DNA of 63,917 bases, filler included, from Perkinsus olseni (lineage: Eukaryota): the NCBI GenBank assembly GCA_013115125.1. It is 6 parts of 6 records of this genome, joined end to end, with 100 filler letters (N's around TTAATTAATTAA, not from the genome) between each part and the next. Parts side by side here need not be neighbours in the genome. Positions count along the whole stretch, not along the records: positions 1 to 11,631 come from JABANN010000822.1; 5 more parts are not named here. One strand, 5' to 3'. The position numbers and the translations under genes were made by a program. Numbering within the stretch: position 1 is the stretch's first letter; every line of letters starts with the position of its first letter. The notes under the pieces were generated by a model. It did no database searches. It was not told where the DNA came from and worked only from the letters and a program-made list of their open reading frames with translations. This document shows positions 1-58,416 of this stretch, one piece after another.

Positions 1-413
1 CAAGACGATTTCGATGTGTTGGTCGTTTATCGTTAGGAAAGTAGTATTGTGTTGAAAATAAGAGGTTGGAGAAGCCTTGTGGGAGAGAGGCCACTCAGCG
101 GGCCCCAGTGCAGCGGGTGGATGCTGCGGAATTTGAGATAGATTACTTCGGCGCGCGGTTTAGGAGAGCGCGAGGATGCAGTTCCGTTGGAGACAGAACG
201 GTACGTCAGGTTTGTAGGTTACGTTTTTCAACATGTTCACGGCTTCCACTGTCAAGCAAGCGGCTGCTCGGGTGAATAAGATGACTCGCATCGGACTGAG
301 GGATATAGTGCCGGATGAGGATGGAATTCCGAAAAACACGGAGAATCGGGTCTTCGTCGGGATGTAAGGTTACGGTGAGCCTGCAGCTGAATACTTAGTC
401 GAACCGATTGTAG

Positions 414-2438
414 GCTACTATCCGTCCGAAAGGCGAAGATGATCCCATTGAGTTGGAAAGGGTTGGGATCCACGGCGAGGAAGAGTGGCAGCAGTAGTGG
501 CACACGTACTGAGAAGAACTACGAGCGTTGCCTTCTCATAGGGTGAGTTTCGGTCCCACTATGGGGTTCGTAGATAGTGACGTAGATGGAAACTGGAGCG
601 GCGGCCATCACGCGTCTCAGGGACATCGCATCCACAAGGTGTTGTGTGATTCTGCTGCACAAACATCAGAGTCGTAATGTGCTCCCCTTGCAGTCCAAGG
701 TAGGGAAGAGTACTGGGGGGCATGCACAGTGGTTGTGGGTACTTCTTTTTTGGAGCGGAGGACTCATGCTCGCGACTGGTGAGGATGAGTCCTCGAAGCT
801 CATTGACAATAGGAAAGCGCATGGACATTGGAGGATGGTCTCCGTAGGTTGTCTTTTTTCCATACTTCTCTTGTTATGCAGATATGCGTTGGAGGTTACG
901 TTGCGGTGACCGAACCACGGTTCGCCGATGCGTTTTTGTCTGGGACGGCTACACCTGTTATTACCACTGATAATTGGCTTCTGCCTGTGAAAGCGAAGCC
1001 GGTGCCGTTGGAGATAAACGAGGTGATACGAAACCTGGGGATCGTCGGTGTTTGCAGTGTGTGTTTGCAGGTACCGGACAACTCGTCCTTCTTTCACTAC
1101 TGCCTGGTGGGATGCAAATTGAGCATGATGCATGGTTGTTGGGGCCAGGCTTGTGGGGGATGGCTGTGTGATGCACAGTGCTTATCAGCGGAAGAAGGAG
1201 GATGTGTCGCAGTGTGTCGGTCGAAAACGCCATCGTAGGGAGGGACGCCGTCGGGGCGTCGGTCATTGTGCTGAAGGAAGTACTACGCTGGTTTTTACAG
1301 TTACGTCGTTAAAAGTGTGGTATACTGCGATGAATTTCCGGATACGGTTCGGTCGTGTGAGCTACGGGGCCAGAGATTGAGTAAACTAATGAGCGGCAAG
1401 GGTTTGTGGCAAGACTCTGCTGCGCCTGCCAGTGGGCCTTTGAGGGAAACGATGAGACGAATAACAGAGGTCGTTAACAGCAGAGGAGGTATTAGTAGCA
1501 CTTGAAAGACGCCCTATGCCTGCGAGGTGCTATGCCTGCCTCTCGTAGGTTGGATTGTAGCGGGGTGGTACAAACCTGGTATGATAAGTGACGAAGGCAC
1601 GGCAGACGCACCACTCTTCAAACTTACTGAGAAGATACATATCTCCAGTATATGGCCTGTCGAGTTCGAAGGACTGGAGGACAAGTTGGCCGCTCTGCAC
1701 GCACAGGCCGAAACTCCTGCCGACATTCCGTGGGAGGTTGACGAGGATCCCGTTTTCCCCGAGGTGGGCTCGCGCGTCGATGGTGCGTATTGGACAGTCT
1801 TTATGTGAGAAGTTTGTGGAAATTAGTGGAATGTATCCATTCTGTGATTACATGTACCGGCGTGCTGTCAGTGGTATATTGCGCTCTCAGGGTGAAAATT
1901 GTGCTTCTGCTGCTGACAAGGATAAGAGAAATACAGGAGGAAGTCAGAGTAAGTCTGAGAAGCTTATTTTTTATCGACTATTGTCGTGCAGGGAACATTG
2001 ATGAGCGTCAGAAATGTGCGACAAAGAAGGCGTTAGTCATCGGGGGAGGAACTACGAGGTCATCGGCTAATGCTAAGAAAACGGCAGCGGCTGGGAAGAA
2101 GCGAAGGTAGCTTGAGATATAGGTCTTAATATATAGGAAATACACACAGTTGTTGGCGTAGTTTTCCTTCAAATCCCTCAAGCAGCTCAAGCAGTAGCAA
2201 TGCTAATGATGACATAGGCTGGAGTATGAGTCGGGCCGAAGCTGAGCAGTGCTCGTCTTCATTTTTGGAAACACTCCTAGGGGTGGACGATTCGACGTGG
2301 AATATGATTCAGGATATTATCAAACGACGAAGGGAGGGTTCAAGCGAGAGCCCGAGGGGTGAGGTTTCATCCTCATAGGATGGAAAGCCTGTCGCAGAGT
2401 CCTTGAGTGACCTTGCTTTGCTTTCAGAGGACGAGTAA
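414..2438 (+). CDS. Multi-exon Cys-rich hypothetical protein, probable accessory gene of the Helitron-like element (5' end uncertain)
   Basis: Phase-consistent GT-AG exons ~414-542, 621-699, 882-1022, 1071-1234, 1301-1488, 1549-1763, 1891-1948 and further exons ending at 2110 or 2438. Product includes ...NYERCLLIG-DIASTRCCVILL..., CGGWLCDAQC...GCVAVC and VNSRG-GWIVAGWYKPG. Confidence 0.6.
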
Positions 2439-2671
2439 CGTTGGATCGAAGAGCAGCAGGATTTCATTTTGTTCATGATAAAGTTTTAAACTATTGTCAC
2501 CCCATTTACGTTGTATAACGGCTGTCGATGATCATAAGCTTTTTTGTGCTGTGCCCGGAGTGTCGTTGTGCTCATTATAAGTTGGGAAGGGATAGACCAT
2601 TAAGTGTTGAAGGTTTCGGGGAGTTGAACTTCCTAAGTTCAACAGGACCCCTCAACCGTCTCGGGTGTTTA

Positions 2672-5600
2672 ATGGCAAGCCGAAGAAGAAGATGCCAGAT
2701 CTGCAAACGGTTCATAACACCGACAGGATCTTGCACGAAGTGCAGGACGAGGGTAAAATGACATCACTAATTTTAGGTGTGAATTAGTTCTGCAGTAGTT
2801 CTGACTGCCTACGCTCCATTATGTACTCAATGGGCGTTGCATTGTAATCGTTTGTTTTTAGACCGCTGGTGAGAGGGCTGACGAGAGGAATGGAGAGGAA
2901 GTTTCGACAAGCGACACGGCGTTTAATCTGCCGCAGAACGACGACTTGGTAGGTGCTTGAGAGTCATACAGAAAGTCGGAGTTGGACAAATCCGCACATT
3001 TGTGAATGGGTAGTGCTAGGTAATGACGGAAGATACGTGTGATCGACAGCAACGCTGCATGTCCTGTTTACGGGAGGGCTATTGGGCATCACCGCTGGAG
3101 TTGATATTGGTATCCACGCAGGGACTGCGAGCTAAGAAATATGGAGCATTACGAAGAACCGATATACAACTGCGACGTCGTGTGCGGGTATGTAGACTGT
3201 GCAAAACATACCTTAGCAGCAGGCAAGCTAAATGGAGCGACTGTTGGCCGTGCGTGCTATCTCATTATGTACAAGGAACTGGAAGCGCTGGGGTAGAGCT
3301 CTGGTCTGTTTTACCGCTAAACATAAGACTTTGGTGGAGACATCTGCGGGAAGTGTACGGAACTGCAGCTCCCGTGGTCGACGTGACAATTCGTATGGAA
3401 AACTTTCATCGCGATGTTGGGTCGAACAGCATAGGATTGTTAATGCGTGGGCTGAACGCTGAGCCCGTGCGTTCGGTTAGATGTCCGTACGGTTGTTGGA
3501 TATTCGTTGATGAAGCTAAGCTTATAAGTTATGCACATATCATTCAAGGTATTGATCCTGAATTCAGAAGTTGTAATGCGAATTTTGACAAATTTTTATC
3601 CCGACGACGAGCGGACTGGCTGAAGGTGATCCGTTTTTTTGAGTGGGAGATTCGGAGTAGCTGTTGCAGGACAGATGCAGAGGGTTTGTCTGTACTGCTT
3701 TGTGAGCGTCACTCCCGAGGTAGTGTCGGCGAGTATGTACATTTGCCGCAGAACCCGATTTCTCACTTTCCTCCAGTTGAAGGTGAGACGCTGGGAGTGG
3801 CTGTGGCAGCGAGCCATGTAGCGAAAGCTGGAAGGGCTACGTATAGTGGTTATACGTACAAGATGTTACAGGCCACCGCAGGGTTTAAGGGTGTGTCTTC
3901 ATTCATGCTGAAGCAGAATGGAGAATGGGACGTTGGCGGGCTTTACAAGTATAAACATGACAATTTGGTATTCTGGGAACGTGAGGATATTCGGGAGTTA
4001 ACACGACAGCGATACCGGCTTGGTGAAGTACCTTTTACGGCGAAGCGAGAGCTAGAAGCTGGTCCACTATACTCCGCAGATTCCCTGTCAGAAAGCCGTG
4101 CTTCAAGCTTATGGGTGCCGTCAGAGCAGGTCGTGCGTTGTGGTGTGACGAATGAGGGGGTGAGGTGTAAAGTGAGTAATGTGATCTTACGAGATGTGCA
4201 AGACGACGCCGATGCGAACGCCGACGATGGTAATGAGAGAGTGACTGAAGTAGTGATACCAGGGGAAATATATAATCTGCGTTCCACAAATCGATGGAAC
4301 GAGTATCCGAAAATAACACCTAAGTGGTGTCGAGGAGGGAGTAGAGCGTTGTGGGCTATCATTATGGTACTTATTAATGCGAATACGGTGTGGCGGCAAG
4401 TTGTCAAGAGGTGTGCAACGGATATCCCGAACTGGAGAACGTACATTGTATGGATAACAGCAGTTAAGGTGCTGGGTGTGAAGAGGAAATCTTATTCGCA
4501 GGGTCTACAACGACGAGTACTGAATCATTTACGCCGCGTGGAAAAAGTGAACCAATTGGTGGATTTATATTGTCGCCCAGTGGGATACATAGGTCCTATT
4601 CCGTTTGAAGCAGCATGCGGTGAGTTTTTCGCAGATGTGCCTGGAATAGATGTTTACCATGTCCGCGAGAGAAACCAAAGAGGATGGAATGAAATCGTAA
4701 ATCGCTCGGTGGAGGCGTCTATCTTGATATTAAGAACGTCGGCTGGCGTTGGATCACGTAGTCGCACCGTCATACCCGACGTAGAGTTCAGCACTGTTGA
4801 CGGGGGCCGGTGGAGCTTGCGCTTTGTATTCGGGAATAGCATGGATATCGTCCGAGCCGGTGAGGCGGCTTGGAGTATCGACCAGAGATGGACAGCTGCT
4901 AAATTTCAACGAGATGGTATACCTACAGAGCATTTGCGGTCCTGGTCAATACTAGTGTACATTAAGACTAACGGATGCTGCGAGTCAGACGCGAAGAAAA
5001 AAATGTTGTCATTCATTGGTGGGCAAGGAACAGTACAGTGTGAAATATGCGAGCGTTACTTGATTCGCGAGGTTCACGGGACTTGTCAGAAGTGCAGTGT
5101 GTCGGGTTGCAAGAGGAGAATGTACTTCTCATGTCCAACCGACGGCTGTGTATGCGGCATTTGTCGTGAGCATGCGAGAGAATTTTTCTCATCGCCGGAG
5201 ACGCAGGTAAGCCTCCGACCGCAAGCCGCAGAGAGTGGAGTGACACGCAGTAGGCAGCTATCACCAGAGAGTTCGTCCGATGATGAGTGTATTTCGCGAT
5301 GGAACGGAGTCCAAGAGATGGGACCTACACAAGTGACAGGAAAAGACGTCGTGGGTGGTCATGTGATCATAAATGGTCTTCTACATTCTTTGAGACGCGG
5401 GAACCACACCATGCCTCTGAACACGGCTGAACAGCGATTCTTGCAGCAGATGGTTAGTCGGAGTCCAAATATCATGTTGAGTCTGGAGCTACCGGAAGCA
5501 ACCCTCTTTCCAACGCTGTTTTTTCAAGGAACGAATGACAACGGAGTTGAAGGAGCTTTACCGTTGAGTGCATTTGGACAGAAAGATTCATGCGAGTCAG

Positions 5601-8600
5601 TCGGATTGGCATCAGCTACTGATCAATTACTAACACGCCTAGCGGATGGGAGTTTGCAAACTAGTCGGAGCCTTGACTACCTGAGCTACGTGTTTGGAAT
5701 TTTGTTCAACAAAAGACTGGCTCACACAGATTCCAGAGTAGTTATGCGGCGGGGTTATTACTCCCTGACTCGCGGCGCTACTGCCATCGACCGTGACGAA
5801 TGCCCTTTACCCTTCGAGGAACTGGATAGCAGACAGCAGGTACGGAGGCTTGCTGCAAGCTTGAAGGCTGATCCAACGTGTACAAAAATGTTCCTCACTC
5901 TGACATGTAACCAACAGAAGCATTTTGGTATCGCACCGTTACGGAGAGCTATAACTGATCACGTTGCGCACCTATCGCCTTCCGAAAGCACAGCTGTTCA
6001 AGAAGGCACTATGGTCGACATATGCTTAGCTTGGAGTAGGGTGTTGAAATACTTTGTTCGGTATATCTCGAGATCAGAGGAGTTGCTGGGACCAGTGAAA
6101 GCTGTGTTCGCGCGTGTGGAGTTTCAAGTAGGTTGGGAGTGAAAATGCGTAGGTGAAAGGTGCTATCGATGGATATCGGTGCGTTACATCGTGTTTTTGA
6201 GTAGTGAGCAGAAATTATGATGGACTTTGGTGCATTAGGTTTGGTGAGTTTAGTATTTATTTGAGTTTTGCAAGACGCTGAGGCACAATGGCGGTGAATG
6301 CATAATGGTGATATTTTGTTCAGACACGTATAATGAGAGACGTATACTTGAGCATTTACATTTTCTCAGGACGCCGCAGGGAATTTGCCACATCTGCACT
6401 TGTTAGCAAAGCTAGACGACAGTGTTACCGACGCCGAAGCACGAGCACGGATAGAATGTGCCGAGAGCCGTATACATGATATCGGAGGTGGATTAACGGT
6501 CAGCGCAGAGGACAGTGAACGGTTGGTGGAAGAAGGACTAATAGAGAGAGTGAATGACTGGATGACGTATTATACGGATTTCGAGAAAATACAAAGCCAC
6601 AGTTGTGAACGTGCGGATTTTCGTTGCCATAAACGGAGAAAAGTAGTTGTCGATGAGGAAAATAATGAAGAGAGGATTGTTAGCGAGTGCCGGGTGCCGC
6701 ATTATCGCCCGGCATACAACGATTCGTTCGACGTCATGAATGCCCCTCACTCCGCAGAGGCTTTGCAATTATTGCTGAGACTTGGACTAGGGCGAAGATT
6801 GGCAGGAACTGGCGAGATCGTAGTTGGAGAAGAGTTGATTGCTGGTCGACATCAGTATTCGAGTGATTTAGGGACGCATATATCACCAACTATACCGCGG
6901 TTATTTTTAAGTACACGTTCATCATCTAATACTCAAGTTTGCGATAAATACTTTAATTCGAGATACCTGAGCAAGTATTTGTGCGGAGCAGAAGAGCGGG
7001 CGTCAGCTGACTTGCGAGTAACCTGTGATGGGTCGTTGAGGGTTGATGTGGATCGAATTCGAAATCGTAAATTAGGAGTTGATCACATGCGTGAGAGCCG
7101 GTTGGGGAGGAAACGATACAGAGAGGAATATAGATTAGTGGCTTCACCAGAATCATGCTGGTGGGTGTATGACCTCCCGTATATCCTATCGGATGAAGAG
7201 TTTTTAACGTGTCCGACGCGTCCACTGTCGCAACGTAGTGGAAGACTGCGGAATGGACGACCTGGAGGTTCGTCAGATAATGTGGATGGGGTAGATCATC
7301 GCCATACTATTGAAGGGCTGACTGACGACAGGAAATACACGGAGAACCAGCGCTTGATATACAGGAGTGTCATGCTCTCAGAATGTACTGTCGATAATCT
7401 TGTGGCTTTCGAGCTGCGTCCGCCAGAGCTAAGATTCGTTGATAATCCGATCCGGTTTTTGGAAAATTTCACGTGGCGAAAATCTCACAATGGGCAGCAA
7501 GGAATCTCAGAGGATTTGAAGGCATCGCCATGGACGGACTGTTTGAATCGACAGTGGCGAGTTCGAAAATCAGCCGTGAAAGGCATCCAATTATGTGCCA
7601 TTGAAAGTGACGACTCATTGGGCTATGACGTTTACCGGTCAATTCTGGAACACCTCGACAGTGTGGAAGTTGAGAGGGAGTTGTACGAAAGGTTTGTCGA
7701 TGATTCGGCAAGTGGGAGTAAACGATGCATAGTGGTTACGTCCTTGCCAAGACCGTCAAATGTACTGGGGTTCTTGGTGCATATCCTACTCTCTCGTGGT
7801 CGTTTCACGACCGAATTGGATCTTTATGCCGCAGGATCTATGACGGAAGCTTTTCGTATCGCTGGTTTAATCCCTCGAGATAGAAACGTTGAGCCTGAAG
7901 ATGTTGATGCACTCCTGCAGGCTTATGTTGTCGATGAGCTTGTATTCAACCCTGTGGGTGGGACTAAAGGGTTTGACAATTGCTTAGTGGTAGCGGATAA
8001 AGTACTCCGGGGTTTATTGCTTGAAGGATGCATCGCGTATGAAGAGCTCCCCATTGCGGAGGAAGAAGAGCTGATAATTGATGGAATGGCCGATGCGCGT
8101 GAAGTTCATGAAGCAGGCCGAGAACGCATCATACAGTGCATGACAGGCGAGCTGGGAGATGCAGTTCCGACCGCAGAACAGCTCCGTGGCGCTACGTTAA
8201 GCAATCCGTTGACATGGAAGCCTAAGTTGAGGGCGACAGCTGAGCAGACAGCTGCGTCTAGAGTTGAACAACAGGAGATTTTAGACAACATTATTGAGCG
8301 ATGCAACTGCTGGTTACGCGGTGGCCACACTCCACTGATTTTAATCGAAGGAATGCCAGGGTGTGGCAAAAGCCACCTGGCAAAATTCTTGGCTGTGTAT
8401 ATGCTCAGTCGGGGGATGTCATTGATAATGACAGCGCTGGCGTCGGAACGGGCCATGTCCCTAGGAGGATGCCATATACATCATGAATTTGGTCTACCAG
8501 TTAGTAATGAGTGGGACCAGAGTACTTCTGAACAACACGCTTTCAATGCATATAGGAAACTGGCGTCGAGGCCAGCACAGTTACACCGTTTGCAACGAGC

Positions 8601-10267
8601 CCATGCATTGATTATTGATGAGATATTCACACTTAATGCGAAAACGTATCATACGATCGACATTTTGCTAAGGAGAATTCGCGGAAACGCTGCTCCGTGT
8701 GGAGGGCTTCTGCTGGTTGCGACAGGAGACTATCGTCAACTGCCTCCTGTATCTGGTAGGTTGAGTTGCCGTTTGCATTGGAGATCGTAATTCTTATGGG
8801 CGCCGCTGCGTGAATGAGCGACGGTCATTCATTGAGCGTCGTATGAGGGGGAGCGATTGTAGGGGCAGTGCGAGTTCGGTGCTCTCAGGTACACGTCTGA
8901 CTGTGGACCCATGCCTGATGACGAACTTCGTAGTATATCACCTACAGAACTTAGTTCGAGCAGCTGCCGACGGGCCGTTGCAACGTGTGTTGACGTTAAT
9001 GGGAAAGCCTGTGCTGAGTGAGGCAGAAATTGATGAAATATGCGGCATACTGAGCGAGAATTGCAGGTGGGTGGATGGATGGGAGATGGTACCACGGGAA
9101 TGCGTAAAAGTATTTGGGAAGCGCCTTGCGGAAGAGGAAGCAACAAGGAGAGAAATAGAAGGATTAATCAGGGGTGGTGCGCAGTCTGTAGTTTTTGAAG
9201 CGCGGGATGAAGCAACGGATGACGATGGGGGTCGGTGGAGGGTTGCAATGGAACAGGAAAGAAATATACTTGATCGACGGACACGACAAGTCAGGAAACT
9301 GCAGGTTATTGAAGGCTGTGTCATGCGATTGACGACCGTGGACAGCCGCCGGCGATGGGGCCAAGGGCAGATCTGTATCGTTGAGAGCATTAATGTTGGA
9401 GAAAAAACCGTGCGGGTCCGTGTCGCACCGCCGTCAAGTAACACGCAAGTGCTGGCAGCACAAGCGTGGCCGCAGGTTGAGGTCAGATATGCAACGAGTC
9501 ACACAGTACGAGGTGGACATAAGACGCACTGCAGACGTGTACAGCTTCCACTGCGTATGAGCAGTTGTACAACGGTGCATAAGTTACTCGGAGAAACCGT
9601 GACATCGTTGTGCAGTAGAATATCCGCAGTAGAAGGAAGATACAAACTATGGCAAAGACAACAACTATATGTGGTGCTGTCAAGGGTCCGGCATTTGCGA
9701 GACCTGTACCTTGTGGGTGATCGACGCGATACTCTATGTGCTGTACGAACGCTATGTCTGAAAATAGATGAATGGAGTGTGTATGAACATAACCTTATGC
9801 AGAAACTGGGGAAGCGGTCGTGTACTATACAACAGAGTCAGATGGATTTTCCTATCCGATCATCAGACAGGGAGCTTCCCGCGCGTGATAATGGAGTGGT
9901 GTATCTGTTAATGAGTAGTACAACAAGGCAGACGTACATCGGTACGTGTTGCGACCTGAATGAACGGGTGAAACAGCACAATTCCGGCCACGGCGCAGGA
10001 TATACGAAGCCACTTAGCCGGCGGCCCTGGGAAGTTATTGCTTACATAACATTCGTTACCGGGTCCGAGAGAGAGAATCGAAGCCATCGGTACGGTGTAG
10101 AATTACGTTGTCAACATCGCGCGTACGGACGCGACGCATGTCGGCAAAGCATAACAACCGTGGACGAAGCCCTGTCTGCTATGAGCGATATAGTTGAAAG
10201 AGAAGAAAACTGTAGGCTTATAATCTGCGGAGAGAAAATGAATGGTAAGGGGAATACATGCAGATAG
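2672..10267 (+). CDS. Helitron/Helentron-like RepHel transposase (Zn fingers + HUH Y2 Rep + PIF1-like SF1B helicase) with C-terminal GIY-YIG endonuclease, ~2346 aa spliced
   Basis: Exons 2672-2752, 2862-2948, 3020-6127, 6370-8755 and 8889-10267 join in frame; 3 of 4 donors are GTAGGT. Rep motifs: MFLTLTCN, ARVEFQ|DAAGNLPHLHLL, YLSKY. Helicase motifs: GMPGCGKS, IIDEI, GDYRQLPPV, TVHKLLGET, QLYVVLSRV. GIY-YIG: GVVYLL...TYIG...ERVKQHNSG.GA.YT...RPW. Confidence 0.9.
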
Positions 10268-11631
10268 TCCGACCACGAATAGTGGAGGAGTATTGGTGCC
10301 ACCAATTTGGTGGTTTCGGGAAAACGCGTAGGCTACCCGTAACAACTGAAGCAATGTGAAAAGGCGTATGGGCAAGCAGACACAGAGTGAATAACGCTCG
10401 AAAATGAGACCCATTGAATGGGTCGTGTAGTAGGATGAGAGTTCAGTTGAACCTGCAGCACGCAAGGCATTGAGAGGACCCGTGCCAAAAAAAGAAAGTC
10501 GAAGTGAAAGGCGTTAACTGAGAATGACACTTTGCAGGATGTGACTGTGAACGACAATTGACGGCAAAGCAGGGTAGTAGATGGACATGTCGTGTGAAGT
10601 TGATGTTTTAGGGAGTGCTTGAGCGCATGGAGGCAGAAGAATATGAGAAGTGTAGTGAGTAAGGTGTTCCGTTGATGCACATTAGGAGAGGAACGATAGA
10701 AACTGAGGATAAAAGTAAGATCACTTGCGAGTTGGAACTCGGGAACGAGTAAGCGGAGAATGAGACTGAGTCCATAGGTAAGACGCACGATAGCCTACCG
10801 TCGGTAGGAGAGCTGCTAGATGGAGGATGGCATGACTTTAACGAGTCGTAGAGGTTGTGCGCACGTGGGAAGACTGTAGTGTTAGTGGAAGAAGGAAGGG
10901 AAGAGAGGCTTAGGGGTAGAGGACGAAGAACAGAACGCCGTTGCTGTATAGACATACGATGTGGCCCATAGGACGGAGTATCCCTGAAGGCAAGGGTGCC
11001 ATAAGCGTCGTGCACTGCATGTATAGCGCCGAGGAGGTACAGAGTTGCGAAAACGGTTGAGCTTCAGTTTTGCGTGAGTCATTGAGGCATTGAAAGTTGG
11101 GAGGTAAACCGCGTGCAGTTAGCGGGAAAGGCCTTGACGGACGCGGTAGTACTATACCGTTGATGAGTTGCAGGAGGTGAGACGTGAGACGGAGTTGGTG
11201 ACGTGGAGAAAGTGGGAACGAAAGAGACAGAAGTGAGCGGAGCGAAGCACGTTGCAAAACAGACCCGGGGGGATATGGTGAACGACGACGGGGTAGGAGG
11301 TTATCCCGAAACGTATATGCAGAGTATGCCAAACATAGGAGTGGCTTGTGGAGGAAAGAACGAAATCGTATGGGCCGAAAGAAACTTAGCCTTCGTTTGG
11401 CGCGGTCTGGTACCTGAGAGGGGGAATGGGGATGATAGCGCTCGCCCGGAGATGGGGCCCTCCCCACATCGGCTCGCACGGATCGTTGATCCCACAAGGG
11501 AAGTTGCACCTAGCGGTGCGCTGCCTGATCGGTGCACTTCGTTGGCACCATGCTAGTCCGATTTGGGGGCCCGTGTTTGTTGGTACTTCTCTTGTCGCAA
11601 CTGCGTTGCATGCTACCGACTTGCTTCCGTG

Positions 11632-11731
11632 NNNNNNNNNNNNNNNNNNNNNNNNNNNNNNNNNNNNNNNNNNNNTTAATTAATTAANNNNNNNNNNNNN
11701 NNNNNNNNNNNNNNNNNNNNNNNNNNNNNNN
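11632..11731. other. Artificial scaffold linker (N + TTAATTAATTAA + N)
   Basis: 100-nt six-frame-stop linker; the same linker occurs at 23324-23423, 35012-35111, 46681-46780 and 58317-58416. Confidence 0.98.
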
Positions 11732-12854
11732 GTCATCTCCCGGCTGACGAGAGCTATTGGCGGGGGGCTCTGAAGACAAAGATGAGGATAGGTCCGAAGC
11801 CAATTCGGATGGAGGCAAGCTACGAGAGAGACTCTGTGATCGACCATCGAATTACGTCCATCATTTTGTAAGATGAGTGAGTTTTAGGGCTTGCCCGCAA
11901 TCGAATAGCTTCAGAGCAGCAGTACGGTGGATTGACGAATCTCTGTGTTGCCCTTACGGGACACTTAAGTGAATGACGACATACTTGTTTATGCTTTGCG
12001 AGTTCATGCATGCATACCATTTGCTGACACCTGAGAATGAAGATATCAGTGATCCCATCGCTTTGTTGAATATAAGCACATTCTCAAGCGAGGCTCCATG
12101 TGTTCTCGTAAGTTGATCTTGTGAATGGCTGGAGAGGGGTGTAGTTGACTTATTATCATGCCTTCCACCAAGAGGGGGAAGAAACCTACAAGTTGGCACG
12201 CGTCTAAGCCGATACTCGCGTCAGAAGCCAGAACCTCAGTAAATCTCTGCGGCATTTTTGTCCGGGAACTTCCCGGCGGGAAGTGAGCCGAGCGGGCCGG
12301 CCTGACAGTCAGGCTTCTTCAGGGCACGGGACATTGAATTTTGAACTTTCACGATTCCAATTTGCAATCGCTGTTCGCTCTGCTTAACCTTCGACCGAAT
12401 GACAGCTCTGGTTGAAGCCTTTTTTCTTTCGCAGGCAAACCCCAATATCTTTCATTCCGTGGCGGCCCCGGACCTTGGATACGAGTGAAATGTACGAGTA
12501 TGGACTATCTCTCTCTACTCGTGAATCATCTCTCATTGCAATTCACCTACCTCACGAAGAGCCATAGCACTTGTTTGGACTGGCGTGTGTTGAGCCTTCC
12601 TTTCAGTCGGTGGAGCGAGTCTGTTTGCCGAGGTCCGACCCCCCAACCTGACAGTCCCGCTGAACCCTGAACCGACCTAGTAAAACGGTTGCTTCGGTAA
12701 CGGGAAACGAAGGCCACCGGAGACCTATTTTTACTTCAGATTGCGTATATCCGTAACAGACATCCCATTGTTGTCTGCATTACAATCATGGATCATGAGT
12801 CTCGTTGAGTAGTCAATTCCGCTAAGTGGGATTGATCAGTCGGTCAAAGCTAAA

Positions 12855-13832: not shown

Positions 13833-16800
13833 ATGTCTTCCACTCACAACAACGAGTTGGACAATCCTGTAATCCACCCTCTCGTACAAGACGTCATGAG
13901 CCAGGTGGGACAAACCTTGAATGATGCGATCACAACTGGAAGATGGAGACTCCCACCTAACGGCCTTACTCTTGCAGCTCAGCCGTCAAATAACACCAGA
14001 TACTCCCAAGTAATATAACAACCTGCTGTCAGAAGCTCCCCCACGTAAAGATCTTCTCGGCAGGTGGTACCCCCCCCGGCAAGAGAGAACACAGTGTCCA
14101 ACGATACTGACGTGACCGTGGAGAACCAGAAGCAACATAAACGAGGCTCTGGAAAGAAGTACAAAGTCCATGAGTCATCTTATCGGTCTATGGACGAAGC
14201 CAAGAACGCCTTGGATGTCTTGGCGAACCTAGCTCCCGAAGGTAAAATGTGGCACGTCGACGACCATTACCGCAAGCGGGCCCAAGTCCACTGTTACAAA
14301 TACAAATGCCACCAATCTCGACAAGGTTGCCGTTACACTGCCAACATACTACTGCTTCCCGACGGCGTCTTCAAGCTGGAAATGCCCGTCTTCCCCGATG
14401 ATACGCACAACCACACTTTGCACAACCCCACCACCACTCCCCCTTCAGGGCGCGGATTGACCACCAACATCCGCGAAGTGGTCGAACGACACAATCGCTC
14501 GCGTGTTCCGACCCAGCAGACCTTGAGAGAGCTGCGGGAAGACTCCTTGATTGACGAAGCCGACGCAACACTGCTCAACCAAATTCGTAACCACAAGTAC
14601 AACTGCAACAAGAACCGCGACAAAGAAGATCCTATTGGGGAAAGCCTCGAGGAAATGAGAAGGTTCTGCAGCAGCATCCAAACCATCCCCGACGACGCCC
14701 ACTCTGTATTTTGCTTGGATTACAATACGACAACGTCGATGTACTGCTTCTTCTCAACAAAGGAGTTGCTGTATCGTCATGGAAATTGCCGATCTCTAGC
14801 TTTGGATTTCACATATAAAAGGACTTGGTGTGGTCTACCTGTATACAATCTGGCTAGTGTGGATCCTCCATCAAAGTGCCGAGTAATCTCCTTGGGGTTC
14901 TGTTTGGAAGAAGATGAGACTTCAGTCCGGCACCTCCTACAGAGTGTCCAGCGAGTAACATCTCAGTTGGGTATCACACATAAACCAAACATATTTGTCT
15001 CCGATAGTGCCCAGGCATATACCAATGCTTGGGCTAAAGTAAGAACGGGAGTGTTAGCCTTCCTCGCAACGGTGTTAGCAGCCTTCCTCACAGTGGTGTT
15101 AGTAGCCTTCCTCACAGTGGTGTTAGTAGCCTTCGTCACAGTGGTGTTAGTAGCNNNNNNNNNNNNNNNNNNNNNNNNNNNNNNNNNNNNNNNNNNNNNN
15201 NNNNNNNNNNNNNNNNNNNNNNNNNNNNNNNNNNNNNNNNNNNNNNNNNCTTCCTCACAGTGGTGTTAGTAGCCTTCCTCACAGTGGTGTTAGTAGCCTT
15301 CGTCACAGTGGTGTTAGTAGCCTTCGTCACAGTGGTGTTAGTACCCTTCGTCACAGTGGTGTTAGTAGCCTTCGTCACAGTGGTGGTACTGATCTTCGTG
15401 AGAGTTGCCTGACGAAAACATGACAGGTACATGGAGAAATCATGCCTTACAAGCTGAGCTCGACTCTCGACTGGGTGGCACCGTCCGACGACCAAACAAC
15501 AATAAGGATCTTCTGCCATTATCATATGATATCTAAGGTGGCGGAGAAGGCTAAACAAGAGATCAAAGCCGAGTTGGTTGGCGGAGCGCAGCGAGCAAAC
15601 GAAGAGATCGAAGAGTTCTTACACGATGTGAGGTTGCTACAACAGAGTCCGAATCACCTGATGTTCTCCACCGCATGCAAATTGTTCGTCGAGAAATGGG
15701 ACGAGCGGTATCCTGAATTGGTGAAGAAGTTCCGGGAAACATGGCTGGAGAATAGATGCACGTGGAGCCAAACCTGTTATGAGAGCGAAGCGCCGCCGGA
15801 GTTCCCAAGAACCAATAACCACATTGAAGCGACGAACAGAAGCTTCAAGGCCGGTATGCGTACACTACATACACTCGAAAATGCCCGATCTTCACTCCTA
15901 CATCTTCAGGTATGATTCATCCTGGGTCGAGCCTCTCAACCTTGGTGCGAGAACTCATGGCGGCGACGGCGGACTTTTCAATTCGTAGAGAGACCGAGGC
16001 ACCCAGCGAGTACCAGCGACTCCTGACAGCAGCACAATGGTGCAATTCGGAAGAAGCGCAGACAATCTATGCTGACGACAAGGTCGAGTACTACTTCATA
16101 CCGTCAACTCAGCTCGTTCGTTGCTGTGGTAATCGCAAGAAGCTTGACGAGACCATGTTCAGCTTTATCGAGAAGTATCTGGCAAATGGGGCTAGATACG
16201 ACCGCTGGGGTACGTTCGACGACTACGCTTCGCTCATGAAGAATATAAGGGTTATTAGAAGAGATACTTACCAGTGCTCGTGCTATGAGAACAGGAAGCT
16301 CGATGGCCAGTGCGTTCACGCACTGGCAATTAAGCTTCAAGAAGGAGTCGTCTCAGGATACAACTTGGCCTCGATCTCTCCACTAATCCCACATCCTAAA
16401 GGAAGACCGCAGTGAGTCGCCTCAGGCCTCCGTGGGCAAATAGGTTTCGCTGATATCAGATTAAAAAGCGATCAAACTCTAATCAGTTCTCACATCTTAG
16501 TTGATCAGGTTCACTAAAACTGGTCCACGGCAAGTGGATAAAGCGTACCTGAAACGCAAGCTGGGATTGGTGGCAGCGATCGAGAAAATCCGCAGCGCGG
16601 ATAACGATCAAGCGAGATCACCAAGGACCGAGCCTAGACTACCTGCTGCTGCCAGAAGAGCAACAACCCGATCATTGGGGAGTCCCTTGTTGACTGGGAT
16701 AACTGAAAGACAAGAACAATACAATTCTGTATTAGAGCAATCACTCGACCCACCGCCGTATGGGACGAGTTCCTCGAGTTCGAGTTCCTCTCTGTGGACA

Positions 16801-20081: not shown

Positions 20082-21412
20082 GATGTTTGCAGTATTTCTG
20101 AGTGTGATAGTGATACACTGGAGTTAATGGATGATATCGATATAGAAGAATTACTTTTAGAAGATGTCGATGATCCAGTATGGGTTAGACAAAAGGATAA
20201 GGTAATAATTATATCTTGGGATGAGTCATCATTACTGTCATACACCTCGTTTATCTTCTTTAGAGATCTTTCTTCTTTGGTGTATGTGATTTTGCATTCA
20301 CATCTATGCTGATAGCTGGTGCACCATCCATCTATCCGATATATTACACGATCAAGTTTATCGTATTGATGCCCTTGAGATTTATCACCTATTACAAAAG
20401 AAAATGGCAGTTTTATATGTTAGACTTTTGTTATTTTGGTAATATACTAGTGATATATTATTATTGGTTTATGCCATATTCCTATCCTCTATTCATGATA
20501 ACATATGCATTGGTAACTGGACCATTGGCATGGGCTGTATTAGTATTCCGTAATTCATTGGTATTCCATTCTGTGGATAAAATAACATCATGTTTTATAC
20601 ATCTTGGGCCATTATTTATGGTAACATTACTAAGATGGCGTACTGATGAGATGCGCACCAACTTCACATCATCGTCATCATCAACTCTCAATCACTTTCT
20701 CTATCAGCATACTCCGTCTAGTTTTACGGTAACACCAACAACAACATCATCATCATCGTCATCTTTGTGTATGTTATTGATCGTTATACCGATATTGGTG
20801 TATTTTATCCATTTACTGCTCTACGGGATTGTCACTAACTATGTATTTCACGTACAAGGTGATAATTCGCAGTATGCAACTTCGTATTCGCATCTTGTAT
20901 CACTACATGGTAAGTTCCTTAAGAGATGTAGTAATTATGTAACTGATGATAATATGTGGTTATGGTATGGTATAGCACAGATAGTATTAACATCAGCTAC
21001 AATACTACCATCATTCATATGGTATGGTATTAGTAAATGGGTGAATTATTCATTATGTGCCGCTTGTTTTATGGCAGCTGTATGGAATGGTGCTAACTTC
21101 TATGTTGAAGTGTTTGCAAGAAAGCATTTGAGGTCATTACAGCGTGAACAACGTAACAAGCGCAAAATGAATATGATGATGAATATTGGGATTGGACAGG
21201 CTTGTGATACTAATTATCATCATACTGGTAATATGGATACCAATCGTATACTTGTAAGTAGGAATAAACTAGATAATAGAAGGTTAAGAAGAAGAAGAAG
21301 AAGCGCTGCTGCTGCTGCTCACAATAATAACAACCATACTACCACTACCACTACTAATACTAGCAGGTCGTTGCCTCATTCTCTCAAATACTCTTGTAGT
21401 AACCAATCGTAA
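19421..21412 (+). CDS. GPC1: Glycerophosphocholine acyltransferase (GPC1/GPCAT, DUF2838-like) polytopic membrane protein
   Basis: Exons 19421-19691, 19741-19848, 19933-20201, 20264-21412. Motifs DK|RSFFFGV, YMLDFCYFGN, GPLAWAVLVFRNSLVFHSVDKITSCFIH, WNGANFYVEVF; several hydrophobic segments; (GAT)17 poly-Asp tract. Confidence 0.85.
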
Positions 21413-22780: not shown

Positions 22781-23452
22781 GCGATGATTACCTCCAGAAT
22801 GATGATATCTCGTATTACTGAGCATAGTATCCAATTCTTCTCGCAATTTCTCTTTCTCCTTCTGATCATGACGTAATTAATCGCTATGTGAGATAATACG
22901 ATCGTAGCAGCAGCATTACCATAAGATTGCGTATAGCAGCCCAATTCTTGTATAATGGATGAGCCAAACATAATGCTTGTATGGCAGCGTTGATCATCAC
23001 ACAATCATCAGGACCGCCAGCAGTAGTAGTATTAGTGTCAGGAGTATTATCAGCAGAAGCATGATGACGATGATGAGATCCTGCGTTATTCAGTAGGGTG
23101 GTCCTAGTTGAACTCATACCACCATCGCAACCTCCAACCTAACATCATAATAATAACAACAACAAAGGTGATATCAATAGTATTAGTACAAGTAGCAATT
23201 CTCCGATACTTTCTATAATCATACAACTGATGTTATTATCATTGAATGATGATGATGATGTCATTATTATAGTACTGTTATTATTATAACTAGGGTTATG
23301 ATGAAGTAATACTGACACACTGACNNNNNNNNNNNNNNNNNNNNNNNNNNNNNNNNNNNNNNNNNNNNTTAATTAATTAANNNNNNNNNNNNNNNNNNNN
23401 NNNNNNNNNNNNNNNNNNNNNNNNCCCCCCCCCCCCCCCCCCCCCCCCCCCG

Positions 23453-34525: not shown

Positions 34526-36390
34526 GCAGTTGGCAGTTGGGCAAAACTGAGGGAAGAGAGGGGAAGAAGGGGGAAAGAAAAGAAGGAGAAAGAGGGAAGG
34601 TGGAGAAGAGTGTTGAGTATATTCCGTTGACTATCTTGCTCGGTTGAGAAGCTACGCTCAGGCTAATTTTCTTGGTTCCTGACAATAAGACAGAATAGGG
34701 AAGATTCGACCGTTGCATTCAACACGGCAAAACTCGGGTATTGCATTCTCAATCAGTCAGTCCCCGACAGAAGGGAGGAACTCGCGCTCTATGAACTCAG
34801 AGCCCAACAGCATTACACTTGGGATACATAAAGAGCAAATACGGCGGTCAGCTTTTGGCATTGGGGACTTCGTTGAAGGTGGAGTGCATGTATTGATAGA
34901 TCAACTCAACTTCGAGGATCAGGAAGAAAAAACAAAAAGAACTACAGGGTGTTCCAATTCGATATGCAAATCACAAAAATCAGTCTAATTCAGCACATAC
35001 TACGTGTTTGANNNNNNNNNNNNNNNNNNNNNNNNNNNNNNNNNNNNNNNNNNNNTTAATTAATTAANNNNNNNNNNNNNNNNNNNNNNNNNNNNNNNNN
35101 NNNNNNNNNNNATCGGGGTACCCACGCAGTGGGTCGATCGGGCCACTCAAAAAGCATCTCTCATGAGCCTCCGGCTTCTCGGCGCACCGTTTGGTGATGG
35201 ATATTGGGTCTACCGCGCTTTGACTCGATCGTCTCCGAATGCGGTGTGAGAGTCAGAAAATTTCTCCCCTTAACAGTGTTAAGTTAACACGCGCCCTGTC
35301 AACCTCGAAACGTCACGTCTCAGACGTGGGAAATGGCCTCTGTAAGAGCTTTTGCGAGCACCGTCCGAAATTCCTCGCTGGTATGGAAATGAAGTTTAGT
35401 ATGCTTCGAAGACCTCTCAAATTACTACAGCCAAACGCCGCGAAGCTTTCTCTTGCTACCACTTCGCCTTACCATGCTAAAAGGTAAGGTTTTTTGATCC
35501 ACATCGAGCGTCTCGCTGCAATCCTCTTGTGTTGTGCCATTCGGGGGTATCTGGTATCTGGTGACATAGGACTCAACACACAGGAAGAGACGGACTAAAA
35601 CATCTAAAGCACAGCATCTAAATCCAACCAGAGGAAGTGTCTCGTCTCGAGCACAGCGGAGCGAAGCGGTGTCATCATCTTGGTTTCCATGATGATGCCC
35701 TCGCGCGCTGCGTGACGGGGAGAATCGATCGAGCTGGCAGTGTCCCGTATCGGGCGGGCACCCCCGGCAACTTGACGGCCGGGCTGCTCTCAAAGCTCGT
35801 CCCTGAAACAAGAAAGCGATCATTCCTTCGCAAGACGACCACAACCGTCCTATTGATCGACGCCTAGCCAGCTGAGTGGCCCATGAGCGATCAGAATCTA
35901 CACCGTGTCGCCGTACCTATGCATGCGTGCAACTAGCCTGCGCGGGCAAGCTAACATCTCAAAGAGGACAAGGCCAGTCGATGGCCTTCTGAGGGGAGTG
36001 ATGATCCGTAGGATCCAGCCTCTAATAGGAGACATCAGGCTGTGGTATTTCGGGGGACCATGGCTGTAGGTTGACGAGTAGGGCTCCTACCCTCGGGAAA
36101 AGAGCAGTGGAGCAGAGTCATGGGCGCACGACCTGTGCGGGCGTACGCACGAACTGCTAGTTTCTTCCAGCACAGTAGTTATACCCCTCCTCGTCAATCC
36201 TATTTCCCGTTCAACGAGAGCGTCCTAACTCCACATTAGCTGCAACATGCGAGTACGTCGCAGCGCTGCACCGCAAGCCAATCGGGCGACTGCACAGAGC
36301 TGCAAGTTTTACTCTCCGCAGGCCCTATCCTCTCACATGACAAAGTTAACACAGTTGGGAACGGCTAGAAACATGCTCATACTTTGGCCA

Positions 36391-39432: not shown

Positions 39433-41364
39433 CGTGGACGGTGTAATTGCGGCGGGCGAGACTAAAGCCTGGTCGAAGGAACCACAACCTGGTGCCCGAC
39501 ACCGAACCGTGAGTCAAGACAGTTCCCTGCATCCTCCCTCGACCTCCCTGTTAGGTGCTATTGCACTCAGCAACGCCACGGCAACATGATTACCTCAACT
39601 ATTCGACCATCACTTAGCTGAGCGCCGCGAGGTTAAGAACGGTCGGAACATAATCCCTCTCAGAAGTTCTGAGTCAGCACTGCACAAGGGCCTACACTAG
39701 TACTTCGCTCCTCAGCATGCCAACGACGCTTCAGGGGGCTTAAGGCTCCGTTCTCGCGAGCAGACTAGCGCTGCATCACCTCACGCTTACTACAGAGCGA
39801 GTTGTATATGAAGAGCCCGACCCGTAGTCTACTAACTTCTCTAGAGCAAGACCCTTCCACCAACGCCGGTTTTTACCTCTATTCCCTCCATACTGTCTTC
39901 GACCTCCTCGAGTAGTGACTGCACTTCGGCGATGACCATCCACTGCAATCCACTGCAAACTCAGCCACCATCCGCACGGTAACTCGGAACAGGTTAGAAG
40001 GGAGAAGCACAGAACTCCACACTCCTTAATCTGCTGAACGTTCAATCATTCCAGTATGAGCCTCCATCGGACGGAACAGAGCGGTTACTTCCGCCACAGC
40101 CATCCAGCCGTCAAGGGAAGAGAAAGACGCGGGAACCGTTTCGTACCGCGACGAATCTTCGTGGGCTCTCGCGTTATCGAAGGTCAAGACGTTAGGCTCC
40201 TGGGTTCGACAAGACACCCAGGATGATGACGGGCGCAAATTTCCGAAGCCACGCTGAGTGACGCTTAGGAGCTCTGCAACTACGCAGGACTTGATCGTAA
40301 GATGAGTGACTAGCTCAGGCAATTGTGCTTTCGACTGTATAGGGGTGGTACGATGAGGCCATAGCTGGCAGGTCGGACACGCTTGTTGTGCTGAGATGTC
40401 CGTTTCCTATGAGGGAGGTTCTCGCGACTACGACAAGTCGAAGGTCGGCAGGTAGTACACAGCGTCTCGCCGCAACAGAATGCTGGCCCTCTGCAGAGCT
40501 GCTTTCCTGGTGGTCATGAATCTGACAAAGCCATCGGAACACTCGCCCCCCTTCTAACCACCAGGAAATCACCTTTTCCCTGAGGTTTTCCCGTAGACCC
40601 TCGTTGTCAGCAGCATGCTAGCTCAACAACCACTAACCCACGCAAGCAAATGCCTTTCACCATCATCAAGCCCACATCATCTAATATACCAACACTCTTG
40701 GGTCGAGTAATATAAATTTTATATCTGTCCCTTCCTCTGTTTGCACACCTCTTTTCGCATCCTCCCTAGTACACGGAGTTATCAACAGGACCTTCGCCTA
40801 GAATGCGCGCCCGCTGCTCGGACGACTTGCTCACCCCACATTCCTTCGCCTTAACGCCATCTGCCGGCTGCAGCGGCACAATATCACTGGTATCATTCCC
40901 GCTCTCTGCATTCCTTTCTTCAAGACGATGATTTGGGTAGAACTCAGAACCCTAGCTCATCACCAAACTTTCTGACGAGCTCTGCTCATCTCCCCGCGGC
41001 CAAATCGAACTGGAACACAAACCGGAACAATTCAGTGAAGAAAGCTGGGAGGACTCGAGAGCTCGACAACGTGATAGTAAAGGTCCAGAAATCAACACAA
41101 GAAGGGCACAAAGGCACTCTTCGATATACTCTACTGCGGCGAAGCGATAAGAACTACTCTTAAACAGACTGATACACCTACTGAGGCATGCAGAGTCAAC
41201 TGCCCTTGGCTACGACTACTGATGCTGCTCAATCAGGAGATCAGCTCAGAAGATTAGATGTCCTCAGCTGATCAGAGAATTCACAAAGGCGAAGCCCAGT
41301 TTGAATCCTTCAACTGCTGCCACCTAGCAATCAGTTGCACTGGATCAACTTTTAGGAAAAATTA

Positions 41365-43182
41365 TCAGGTCGGACACGGTGTCGTCGTAGGGCAAGGGGG
41401 CTGTGTCGGACACGGGGTAGTTGTTGGGCAAGGTGGATACGTGGATGACGTTGTTGTAGTCGTCGTTTTGGTCGTTTTTGTGGTAGTCGTAGGGCAAGGG
41501 GGCTGTGTCGGACACGGGGTAGTTGTGGGACAGGGAGGATACGTGGATGACGTTGTAGTTGTAGTCGTCGACGTAGTGGTTGTAGTCGTAGCTGTTGTAG
41601 TAGTTTTAGTGGTAGTAGTTCTTGGGGTCTTAGTGGTTATAGTTGTCGTAGTCGTAGGATACGGCGGATGTGTCGGACACGGTGTCGTCGTAGGGCAAGG
41701 GGGCTGTGTCGGACACGGGGTAGTTGTGGGACAGGGAGGATACGTGGATGACGTTGTAGTTGTAGTCGTCGACGTAGTGGTTGTAGTCGTAGCTGTTGTA
41801 GTAGTTTTAGTGGTAGTAGTTCTTGGGGTCTTAGTGGTTATAGTTGTCGTAGTCGTAGGATACGGCGGATGTGNNNNNNNNNNNNNNNNNNNNNNNNNNN
41901 NNNNNNNNNNNNNNNNNNNNNNNNNNNNNNNNNNNNNNNNNNNNNNNNNNNNNNNNNNNNNNNNNNNNNNNTAGTCGTAGGATACGGCGGATGTGTCGGA
42001 CACGGGGTAGTTGTTGGGCAAGGTGGATACGTGGATGACGTTGTCGTAGTCGTCGTTGCAGTAGATTTAGTGGTTGTGGTCCCCGTTGTGGTGGTCGTAG
42101 TCGTTGTAGTCGTCGTTTTGGTGGTTTTTGTGGTAGTCGTGGGGCACGGAGGGTACGTCGGGCACGGGGTAGTTGTTGGACAGGGGGGATAGGTAGATGA
42201 TGTCGTTGTGGTTGTAGTGGTAGTAGATCCTGTTTTCATAGTGGTTGTCGTAGTCGTGGACTTTGGATAAGGCGGACGTGTCGGACACGGGGTAGTTGTT
42301 GGATAAGGAGGATACCTAGATGACGTCGTAGTGGTTGTAGTAGTAGTGGTTTTCGTGGTAGTTGTGGGGCACGGAGGGTACTTGGATGACGTAGTAGCCG
42401 TCGTAGTTGTCTTAGCAGTCGTATTAGTCGCGGTGGTGGTGGTGGTGGTCGTCGTCGTAGTCGTGGTGGTGGTCGTAGTAATCGTGGTGGGCTTTGTGGT
42501 AGTCGTGGGGTATGGAGGCTGTGTTGGACACGGGGTCGTCGTGGGGCACGGCGGCTGTGTCGGACAGGGGGTAGTCGTTGGGCATGGGGGATACTTCGAT
42601 GACGTCGTGGTAGTCGTAGTGGTTGTAGTGGTTGTGGTAGTCGTGGTAGTAGTCGTGGGGCAAGGAGGTTGCGTCGGACACGGAGTAGTGGTAGGGCAAG
42701 GAGGTTGCGTCGGACACGGGTTAGTTGTGGGGCTAGGAGGCTGTGTGGGATGGACTGTCGTCTTTTTTCCCGGACAGGGCACAGGGGAGCCCTCCAAGCA
42801 GTCGGGGTCTTCCTTCCACACGCAAAAGTTATTAGGATGGGATGGAGTGGGTTTGTAATATCTGAGGAGAGTGAACAGGTCAAAAGATGTGACCTTGAGG
42901 GTGACTGCACACTCACAAGGCCTGGCAGATACCAGTCTCCGGGAACTGTGAGTCGGGCTTGCAATAGGAGCCCGGATGCAGATCCTGGCAGCTCGTCTGA
43001 AAAACCATAGGGTGTCACGCGAGTCAAGGAGGGCGAGAACGAGGCCCAGCATGGGCCATTCCGTGGAGGATGGGATGTAGAGTTGCAACTGTCGACCTTA
43101 CCGGAGGGTAACGGTAGGGCCGCCGAGCGGCACCGCCGAGCAGTAGACTCGAAAGGGTTGCTAGAAAGAAAAGCCGAACCAT
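41365..43182 (-). CDS. Secreted mucin-like protein: signal peptide, Cys-rich GSYCK domain, Thr-rich PPCPTTTPCPT repeats
   Basis: Exons 43182-43102 (MVRLFFLATLSSLLLGG), 42996-42917 (TSCQDLHPGSYCKPDSQFPETGICQAL) and 42861-41365 across a gap (YYK...FCVWKEDPDCLEGSPVPC, then repeats). Confidence 0.85.
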
Positions 43183-58222: not shown

Positions 58223-58416
58223 AGCTGAGAACAGCATGTTTCGTATCGTGAGTCATTGATAACCAAACCCCACTCTAGTGGATTCTTAGAGGAATCTGTA
58301 ATTAATATTATTGAGCNNNNNNNNNNNNNNNNNNNNNNNNNNNNNNNNNNNNNNNNNNNNTTAATTAATTAANNNNNNNNNNNNNNNNNNNNNNNNNNNN
58401 NNNNNNNNNNNNNNNN

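Follow-up and report, generated by a model that had tools for sequence, protein, structure and literature searches.

The DNA analysed in this study, hereafter the window, is a stretch of 63,917 nucleotides (nt), filler included, from the shellfish parasite Perkinsus olseni (GenBank assembly GCA_013115125.1). It is composed of separate contigs chained by five linkers of the form N44-TTAATTAATTAA-N44 (11632-11731, 23325-23424, 35012-35111, 46681-46780 and 58317-58416). Since these linkers split the window, genes located past position 11631 are not neighbours of the gene that concerns us here, and physical linkage to it is limited to positions 1-11631. This gene (2672-10267, plus strand, five exons) encodes a predicted transposase of 2346 amino acids (aa) of the Helitron-like, rolling-circle type, in which a Rep domain and a helicase (together RepHel) are followed by an SLX1-like GIY-YIG nuclease. 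A second gene, the companion gene (233-2438, plus strand, 11 exons, 475 aa), lies upstream of it.

All exons of the transposase gene were located on the plus strand. Exon 1 (2672-2752) encodes a CxxC...CxxC motif, and its ATG at 2672 is the first in-frame ATG past a TAA stop at 2516-2518. Exon 2 (2862-2948) is followed by exon 3 (3020-6127), which encodes the N-terminal domains and the first part of the Rep domain, by exon 4 (6370-8755), and by exon 5 (8889-10267), which encodes the C-terminal half of the helicase and the GIY-YIG nuclease (458 aa). Spliced in frame, the five exons give 7041 nt, corresponding to 2346 aa and one terminal stop, and all four introns are of the GT..AG type. An earlier note on this DNA had proposed a stop-free protein of about 2346 aa assembled from three long open reading frames (ORFs) and two small exons. 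This frame was reproduced, the underlying plus-strand ORFs being 3020-6142, 6352-8790 and 8765-10267.

Three sequencing runs, X7, X9 and X10, were used as presumed RNA; they are not recorded as such, and their contigs show spliced GT..AG joints. The X7 contigs skip exactly 2753-2861 and 2949-3019, which are introns 1 and 2 of the model, and these joints confirm the donor after 2752 and both borders of exon 2. At introns 3 and 4, the spliced protein was aligned across both junctions to 10 intronless homologues without any insertion or deletion. The X7 depth was 83-303 up to about position 3880. One X7 contig runs from the companion gene through the 233-nt spacer and exons 1 and 2 into exon 3, where it breaks off at 3680; a long 3' untranslated region, a two-gene RNA and an assembly break are all possible explanations of this end. 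In addition, an 865-nt contig of low depth covers 9844-10704, including the part that encodes the GIY-YIG domain. This contig could be DNA carried over into the library.

The proteins of the window are 99.5-100% identical to two public models of Perkinsus olseni. The longer of these models (KAF4653310.1, 1313 aa, our P0178), which is named 'hypothetical protein' or 'ATP-dependent DNA helicase', turned out to be chimeric when compared with positions 233-8790. It joins the companion gene to transposase residues 28-106 and 1088-1888 and ends inside intron 4, without the remainder of the helicase and without the nuclease.

The HUH-Y2 Rep domain (5345-7270, plus strand) is interrupted by intron 3. 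The Rep motifs claimed in the earlier note were located as PHLHLL at 6388-6405 (HUH motif) and RYLSKY at 6961-6978 (two-tyrosine motif), both on the plus strand, and H-x-H and Y-x2-K-Y are nearly invariant in 22-sequence alignments of the family. The Pfam family Helitron_like_N gave 15.1 bits in the window, under its cut-off of 28.9, because intron 3 splits the Rep domain. Among four intronless relatives (2268-2777 aa), three scored above the cut-off (29.9-32.7 bits), and PIF1 and GIY-YIG were matched in all four. The Rep region of the related locus L003 groups among the generic Helitron_like_N clusters of the Atlas.

The PIF1-type SF1B helicase (8266-9820, plus strand) follows the Rep domain in the same protein and is interrupted by intron 4. 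Walker A (8350-8373), Walker B (8611-8625) and the motif GDYRQLPPV (8725-8751) were all found on the plus strand. Pfam PIF1 was matched with 63 bits (E 3.8e-17), and sequence searches of the Protein Data Bank (PDB) matched PIF1 and Helraiser. The predicted fold of the C-terminal half of the helicase was compared with 48161 solved chains, the set behind all Z scores below, and matched Pif1 (7otj, Z 18.1) and Helraiser (7lcc, Z 17.3). A PIF1-type helicase, as had been claimed, is present.

The C-terminus of the protein is formed by the GIY-YIG nuclease domain (9884-10264, plus strand), with the GIY motif at 9896-9910 and the YIG motif at 9932-9943, both on the plus strand. Pfam GIY-YIG was matched at 9893-10057 with 36.6 bits (E 5.5e-9, cut-off 22.6), exactly where the domain had been placed before (from about 9893), and the domain retains the GIY, YIG, Arg, His-Asn and Glu positions. 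A profile of the family matched the SLX1 entries 4xlg, 7cq2, 7wme and 6seh at E 2.2e-15 (4xlg) to 7.9e-13. With the same profile, bacterial UPF0213 proteins scored lower (E 2.4e-6); the single window sequence matched the same SLX1 names at about E 1e-3. In an AlphaFold2 model of exon 5 (mean predicted local distance difference test score, pLDDT, 85.3), the domain follows a low-confidence linker (exon-5 residues 312-328), and its core consists of strands 336-342, 348-353 and 380-388 and helices 356-364 and 393-412, an arrangement of the beta-beta-alpha-beta-alpha type. Residues 332-458 of the model matched SLX1 6seh_C over 104 residues with Z 10.2 and a root-mean-square deviation of 2.6. The Arabidopsis SLX1 homologue HIGLE (Z 10.1) and SLX1 7cq2 (Z 9.2) came close behind, and I-TevI reached only Z 5.8. 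Both the profile and the predicted fold thus bear out the SLX1-like character of the domain.

SLX1 carries a C-terminal zinc finger of the RING/PHD type, which binds SLX4. The structural match of the nuclease spans only SLX1 residues 9-152, and there are 122 residues from the GIY motif to the stop, the family median being 21 residues after the domain. Since the protein ends with the nuclease domain, it lacks the zinc finger of SLX1. The term 'SLX1-like' is correct for the fold, yet the protein is not an SLX1.

Two conserved blocks precede the Rep domain. Block A (3047-4054, plus strand; exon-3 residues about 10-345) was matched in up to 53 stored relatives and has invariant or nearly invariant Cys and His positions (CxxC...CxxC, CPxGC and C..H...H), a pattern that suggests zinc binding. 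Its AlphaFold2 model (3050-3919) has a pLDDT of 83.2 and a predicted template modelling score of 0.78. The best match of this model among the solved chains was VIA with Z 2.7, covering a small zinc-ribbon part only, and Foldseek gave no match for block A at E<=0.001. Block B (4892-5284, plus strand; exon-3 residues about 625-755) is rich in Cys and His, was matched in up to 39 relatives, and has nearly invariant C/H columns. The spacer between the two blocks is not conserved. A conserved N-terminal zinc-type domain of about 300 aa, with no solved structural relative among these chains, is a trait of the family that is absent from the earlier note.

The occurrence of this architecture was analyzed in a library that reduces about 15 billion proteins, clustered at 50% identity, to single representatives (1.84 billion proteins searched). 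With exon 5 (458 aa) as the query, 697 representatives were found at E<=1e-3 and 63 at E<=1e-30. Behind the helicase, a GIY segment was detected in 114 of the 150 best representatives by single-sequence phmmer and in 141 of them by the family profile, including four relatives that look nuclease-free by Pfam. Eight of the nine representatives without the domain end at most 33 residues after the helicase and hence are cut short; the ninth, P0053, has a long tail without the domain. Rep, helicase and GIY-YIG follow each other in 43 of the 150, those long enough to show the order, and all eight segments of the window protein were found in the same order in 18. Precomputed Pfam assignments also place PF14214, PF05970 and PF01541 together on single proteins. 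The presence of the nuclease in 141 of the 150 best representatives indicates a distinct lineage, as the earlier note had supposed for a rolling-circle transposon with a GIY-YIG domain.

The relatives are 23-36% identical to the window protein, except for one Perkinsus relative at 67-70%. In 160 sequences, the catalytic positions are kept to a large extent (GIY Tyr 94%, YIG Tyr 83%, Gly 90%, His 82%, Asn 93%, Pro-Trp 90/82%), and the window has all of them. Such conservation across a diverged family suggests a working active site that has been kept over a long time. The search for the same architecture in other eukaryotes, proposed in the earlier note, gave named members in Perkinsus marinus, P. 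chesapeaki and the tunicate Styela clava, besides P. olseni; an Atlas cluster points to diatoms, and ENA, JGI or Logan contigs account for most members. Three 90%-identity clusters, of 26, 7 and 6 members, are spread over different contigs, which speaks for mobility at the level of the family and for its recent expansion in certain hosts. A tree of 167 sequences places the window protein as sister to its 67% relative (support 1.0), and the P. chesapeaki protein (32% identity) lies nearby without support. Two further searches gave no relatives: a word-based homologue search with exon 5 at near lengths found nothing at E<=1e-10, and a pattern search based on P0027 alone yielded 18 pattern matches, of which none was a relative.

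The companion gene consists of the exons 233-363, 414-542, 621-699, 882-1022, 1071-1234, 1301-1488, 1549-1763, 1891-1948, 1992-2106, 2162-2358 and 2428-2438, all on the plus strand. All 10 introns were observed as GT..AG joints in the presumed RNA (10 in X7, 10 in X10 and 7 in X9), and the contigs of these runs show the gene to be strongly transcribed. It ends 233 nt upstream of the transposase ATG, with the in-frame stop mentioned above in between. The protein contains a Cys motif (C-x4-C ... C-x-C) and the motif GGW-x3-GWYK-x-G. Of 30 related metagenome loci, eight have a homologue of the companion next to RepHel (tblastn, E 8e-11 to 3e-5); as L006, L007 and L008 are a single locus, the eight amount to six distinct elements. 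In these loci the homologue sits downstream of the transposase, on either strand. A hidden Markov model built from the homologues without the window sequence scored the companion protein at E 1.1e-20. The upstream gene is hence part of the element and not a host neighbour. The companion gene, which had been missed by the earlier note, is a conserved partner of the transposase.

No Pfam family was detected in nine exon pieces of the companion gene, ten accessory ORFs and six aligned homologues, and when a companion profile was searched against the PDB, ribosomal protein S17 (E 0.5) was the sole match. From the spacing of the cysteines, an RPA-like OB-fold with a zinc ribbon, as in RPA70, might be guessed at. 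Conservation was also seen for three more pairs of accessory ORFs from related elements: L010:9220-9864 and L011:13949-14716 (48% identity), L006:1387-2286 and L011:2890-3750 (35%), and L002:3113-4090 and L003:10811-11683, both on the minus strand (28%). Five of these six ORFs (all except L006:1387-2286) were scanned and showed no Pfam family, and none of the paired ORFs matches the contig of the window.

The end of this contig was compared with the sequencing runs. A repeat without assigned strand occupies 11507-11631, where short DNA contigs have a depth of 195-1153 against 121.8 for the main contig. The contig assembled from the run itself diverges from the window sequence after 11510, and the terminal short repeat has about ten-fold depth. 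The gene lies on short contigs in both public assemblies (9730 and 11631 nt). The high-depth end and the short contigs fit a repeat and are no proof of one. The plus strand of the whole first contig (1-12000), which carries both genes, shows a strong skew of G over C (0.16 to 0.27).

The domains and their order, the conservation of the catalytic residues and the linkage of the companion are direct observations. We consider it very probable that positions 233-10267 are the coding core of an autonomous Helitron-like element, and that this element belongs to a large and old eukaryotic lineage of fixed layout: an N-terminal zinc-type domain comes first, the Rep with its HUH and two-tyrosine motifs and the PIF1-type helicase follow, and the SLX1-like GIY-YIG nuclease stands last. 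The companion often travels with this transposase.

Several facts weigh against this interpretation. No second copy of the element was found in the window or its contig, and the contig showed no convincing terminal repeat and no 3' hairpin-CTRR, so that the ends of the element were not found. The X7 depth is at most 8 beyond about 3880. Of the four splice junctions predicted in the earlier note, those of introns 1 and 2 stand in RNA; no RNA joint was seen at introns 3 (6128-6369) and 4 (8756-8888), where the cover is about 0-1 in the three presumed RNA runs. Given the low cover and the two unseen introns, the whole 2346-aa protein is to be regarded as a prediction. The alignment behind the GIY profile that yielded 141 of 150 contains the window sequence itself. 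The full-length family profile matches Helraiser (7lcc) only in the helicase, the Rep domain being far from that of Helraiser. The nearest relative (67-68% identical), which clusters with a P. marinus protein, has its start where exon 5 starts; such a shared start could mean an orthologous gene, perhaps a domesticated one, just as well as an intron-bearing transposon. Finally, the role of the nuclease is argued by analogy.

The termini were also sought in related loci, which contained no informative pair of copies. L013, L023 and L024 have a small conserved ORF on the minus strand in common, beyond which they diverge without a clear end. The genes of L003 are flanked by a weak inverted match of 23 nt (83%; the 1258-2415 region against 11754-11776). 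In L003:1258-2415, upstream of the transposase of this locus, a palindromic motif based on AAAACATGTTTT recurs several times.

Helitron-like elements shape many eukaryotic genomes, and Helraiser is, to our knowledge, the only one that has been studied in the test tube. In the Helraiser model, the HUH-Y2 Rep reportedly nicks and binds a strand, and the helicase displaces it. By analogy, the Rep domain of the present protein would nick one strand at the end of the element and bind it through a tyrosine, the helicase would peel the nicked strand in the 5' to 3' direction, and the second tyrosine would close the reaction. The GIY-YIG domain, tethered in cis by the flexible linker, might make an extra nick beyond the reach of Rep, in the target or in the complementary strand, and thereby provide a 3'-OH for integration or for second-strand synthesis. 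A role as second-nick nuclease is the one we favour, and we regard its chances as roughly balanced; a job of this kind is usually proposed for the APE (apurinic/apyrimidinic endonuclease) of Helentrons and for the GIY-YIG of Penelope elements, according to the available text of two papers (PMC4067079 and PMC6431247, respectively). Since the nuclease is SLX1-like, our second choice, a more tentative one, is that it may cut flap, fork or junction structures that arise from strand displacement. The replacement of APE by the nuclease and its use in target nicking or flap resolution, both put forward in the earlier note, are likewise inferences.

It is quite possible, if somewhat short of even, that the family is a subgroup of HLE2 and not a separate branch. 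The accessible description of an HLE2 family with short terminal inverted repeats, a TT target and a GIY-YIG domain (PMC11417382) points in this direction, and so does the position of the nuclease, which occupies the place of the Helentron APE as that enzyme is described in the available text of PMC4067079; the weak inverted match of L003 may be added. Against this stand the near-universal presence of the domain (141/150) with an active site conserved at 23-33% identity, which argues for one old acquisition and not for casual capture, and the result that no Exo_endo_phos/APE family was reported among the nine family proteins scanned: no such Pfam family was found in the ORFs of the window (E<=0.1) or in eight relatives (four at E<=0.001, four at E<=0.01). 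A bolder proposal, which we offer tentatively and hold to be less probable than membership in HLE2, is that the eukaryotic rolling-circle transposons have, besides HLE1 (Helitrons) and HLE2 (Helentron/Helitron2), a third deep branch formed by RepHel-GIY-YIG elements, with a zinc domain of still unsolved fold, a companion protein of their own and a structure-specific nuclease of the SLX1 type that acts in cis with the helicase. If this were true, their integration chemistry would differ from that of Helraiser, and a nuclease would have been gained independently in rolling-circle elements, as it was in retroelements (APE in LINEs, GIY-YIG in Penelope).

The remaining alternatives concern the nature of the gene itself. 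It is improbable, in our judgement, that the Perkinsus transposase and its companion are a domesticated, immobile pair of host genes for replication or repair. The intact 2346-aa frame with four spliceosomal introns, the strong transcription of the companion gene, the missing termini and extra copies in the window, and the 67-68% relative from another Perkinsus lineage, which starts at the exon-5 point and is sister to the window protein with support 1.0, would all agree with domestication. The short contigs in both assemblies and the high-depth repeat at the contig end are, however, usual for repeats; a second fragment (113 aa) of the same 90% cluster lies on another contig of one assembly, P. 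chesapeaki has a very different member (32% identity), and the family is multi-copy elsewhere. Far less credible is it that, instead of chromosomal transposons, these are rolling-circle replicons of an episomal or viral nature, related, for example, to polinton-like or giant-virus elements. On AT-rich marine metagenome contigs, relatives do come with several conserved accessory genes that belong to no known family, and in one Atlas cluster of GIY-YIG plus helicase the few labelled members include viruses, which is no more than a lead (score 0.83). When the IMG/VR viral contigs were scanned with family patterns, however, 30 pattern matches and no confirmed relative were obtained; members occur on eukaryotic contigs (120 kb to 1.4 Mb) and in the Styela clava and Perkinsus assemblies, and the window gene has spliceosomal introns. 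The idea that the GIY-YIG part belongs to another gene further downstream, which the exon model joined to the helicase by mistake, can be set aside almost entirely. Intron 4 is unseen in RNA and the public model stops within it, but exon 5 first supplies the C-terminal half that the helicase would otherwise lack and continues in the same open frame into the nuclease; intronless relatives have the same order in one ORF, and the junction aligns to them without a gap.

The family is a second, independent case of nuclease fusion beside the APE of Helentrons, which makes the question why some lineages add a second nuclease testable, and it supplies for study a conserved companion protein and an N-terminal domain without a solved fold. 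Current annotation misses these elements, some database members being labelled 'predicted GIY-YIG superfamily endonuclease', and a family profile would benefit the repeat and gene catalogues of protists, diatoms and tunicates.

The other contigs of the window contain further features. On the next contig, a second transposon gene (14049-16415, plus strand) has a MULE transposase domain with 26.7 bits, just under the cut-off of 27.6, and a SWIM zinc finger is weakly matched (16 bits, cut-off 19.6); an N gap interrupts this gene. A DUF2838 ORF (20264-21412, plus strand, 123.6 bits) lies on an AT-richer contig. Long Thr/Pro-rich, mucin-like repeats with PCPTTTPCPTQPP units occupy 41258-43186 on the minus strand. 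Five tandem paralogous ORFs on the plus strand (47011-48072, 48625-49692, 53832-54662, 55526-56725 and 57419-58222) share motifs such as AFFFKHGS or EAFFFKLPT, match no Pfam family, and look like a lineage-specific gene family. The contig at 58417-63917 has 16-21% G+C and no ORF of at least 80 aa, even with TGA read as Trp. The mitochondrial DNA of Perkinsus is AT-rich and in need of frameshifts, and this contig may be organellar.

Among known systems, Helraiser (HLE1, PDB 7lcc) shares the Rep-helicase core, with the helicase fold at Z 17.3 and a family-profile match at E 2.3e-29. Unlike the present protein, it has 1496 aa, stops after the helicase and has no nuclease, and block A was matched in none of the solved chains, 7lcc included. 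SLX1 and At-HIGLE gave the best sequence and fold matches of the C-terminal domain, in which the GIY, YIG, Arg, His-Asn and Glu residues are kept. In contrast to SLX1, there is no C-terminal RING/PHD-type finger here, and the domain is tethered to a helicase. Penelope-like retroelements, likened by description, also have a mobile-element enzyme with a C-terminal GIY-YIG nuclease, which the available text takes to nick the target (PMC6431247); their enzyme is of the reverse transcriptase class.

Helentrons are similar in layout. In the portion of PMC4067079 available, their long protein has zinc-finger-like motifs, an HUH-Y2 Rep, a PIF1 helicase and a C-terminal APE, with extra accessory genes besides. 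The present family resembles them in its N-terminal zinc-finger-like motifs, Rep, helicase, C-terminal fused endonuclease and accessory genes, but the endonuclease is APE/Exo_endo_phos in theirs and an SLX1-type GIY-YIG here, and the accessory gene here is neither OTU nor a recognisable RPA. The added Helitron domains named in the accessible parts of reviews are only RPA, OTU and APE (PMC6431247, PMC11417382). HelenSM92, an HLE2 family of the moss Sphagnum magellanicum, is likewise a RepHel element with a GIY-YIG domain, short terminal inverted repeats and a TT target; the comparison is by description only, and the available text presents the domain as 'captured', in this single moss family (PMC11417382). 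Besides HelenSM92 (the HELIANO paper and its preprint), no printed case of RepHel with GIY-YIG was found in a search that left subscription journals, Repbase, Dfam and supplements outside. The novelty supposed in the earlier note holds in part: the lineage is almost undescribed, yet HelenSM92 is in print (PMC11417382) and hundreds of proteins with this layout stand unrecognised in databases. What is new here is a widespread lineage of Helitron-like elements that is marked by the fusion of an SLX1-type nuclease, by an N-terminal domain without a solved fold and by a companion gene; the copy in Perkinsus represents it in intact form.

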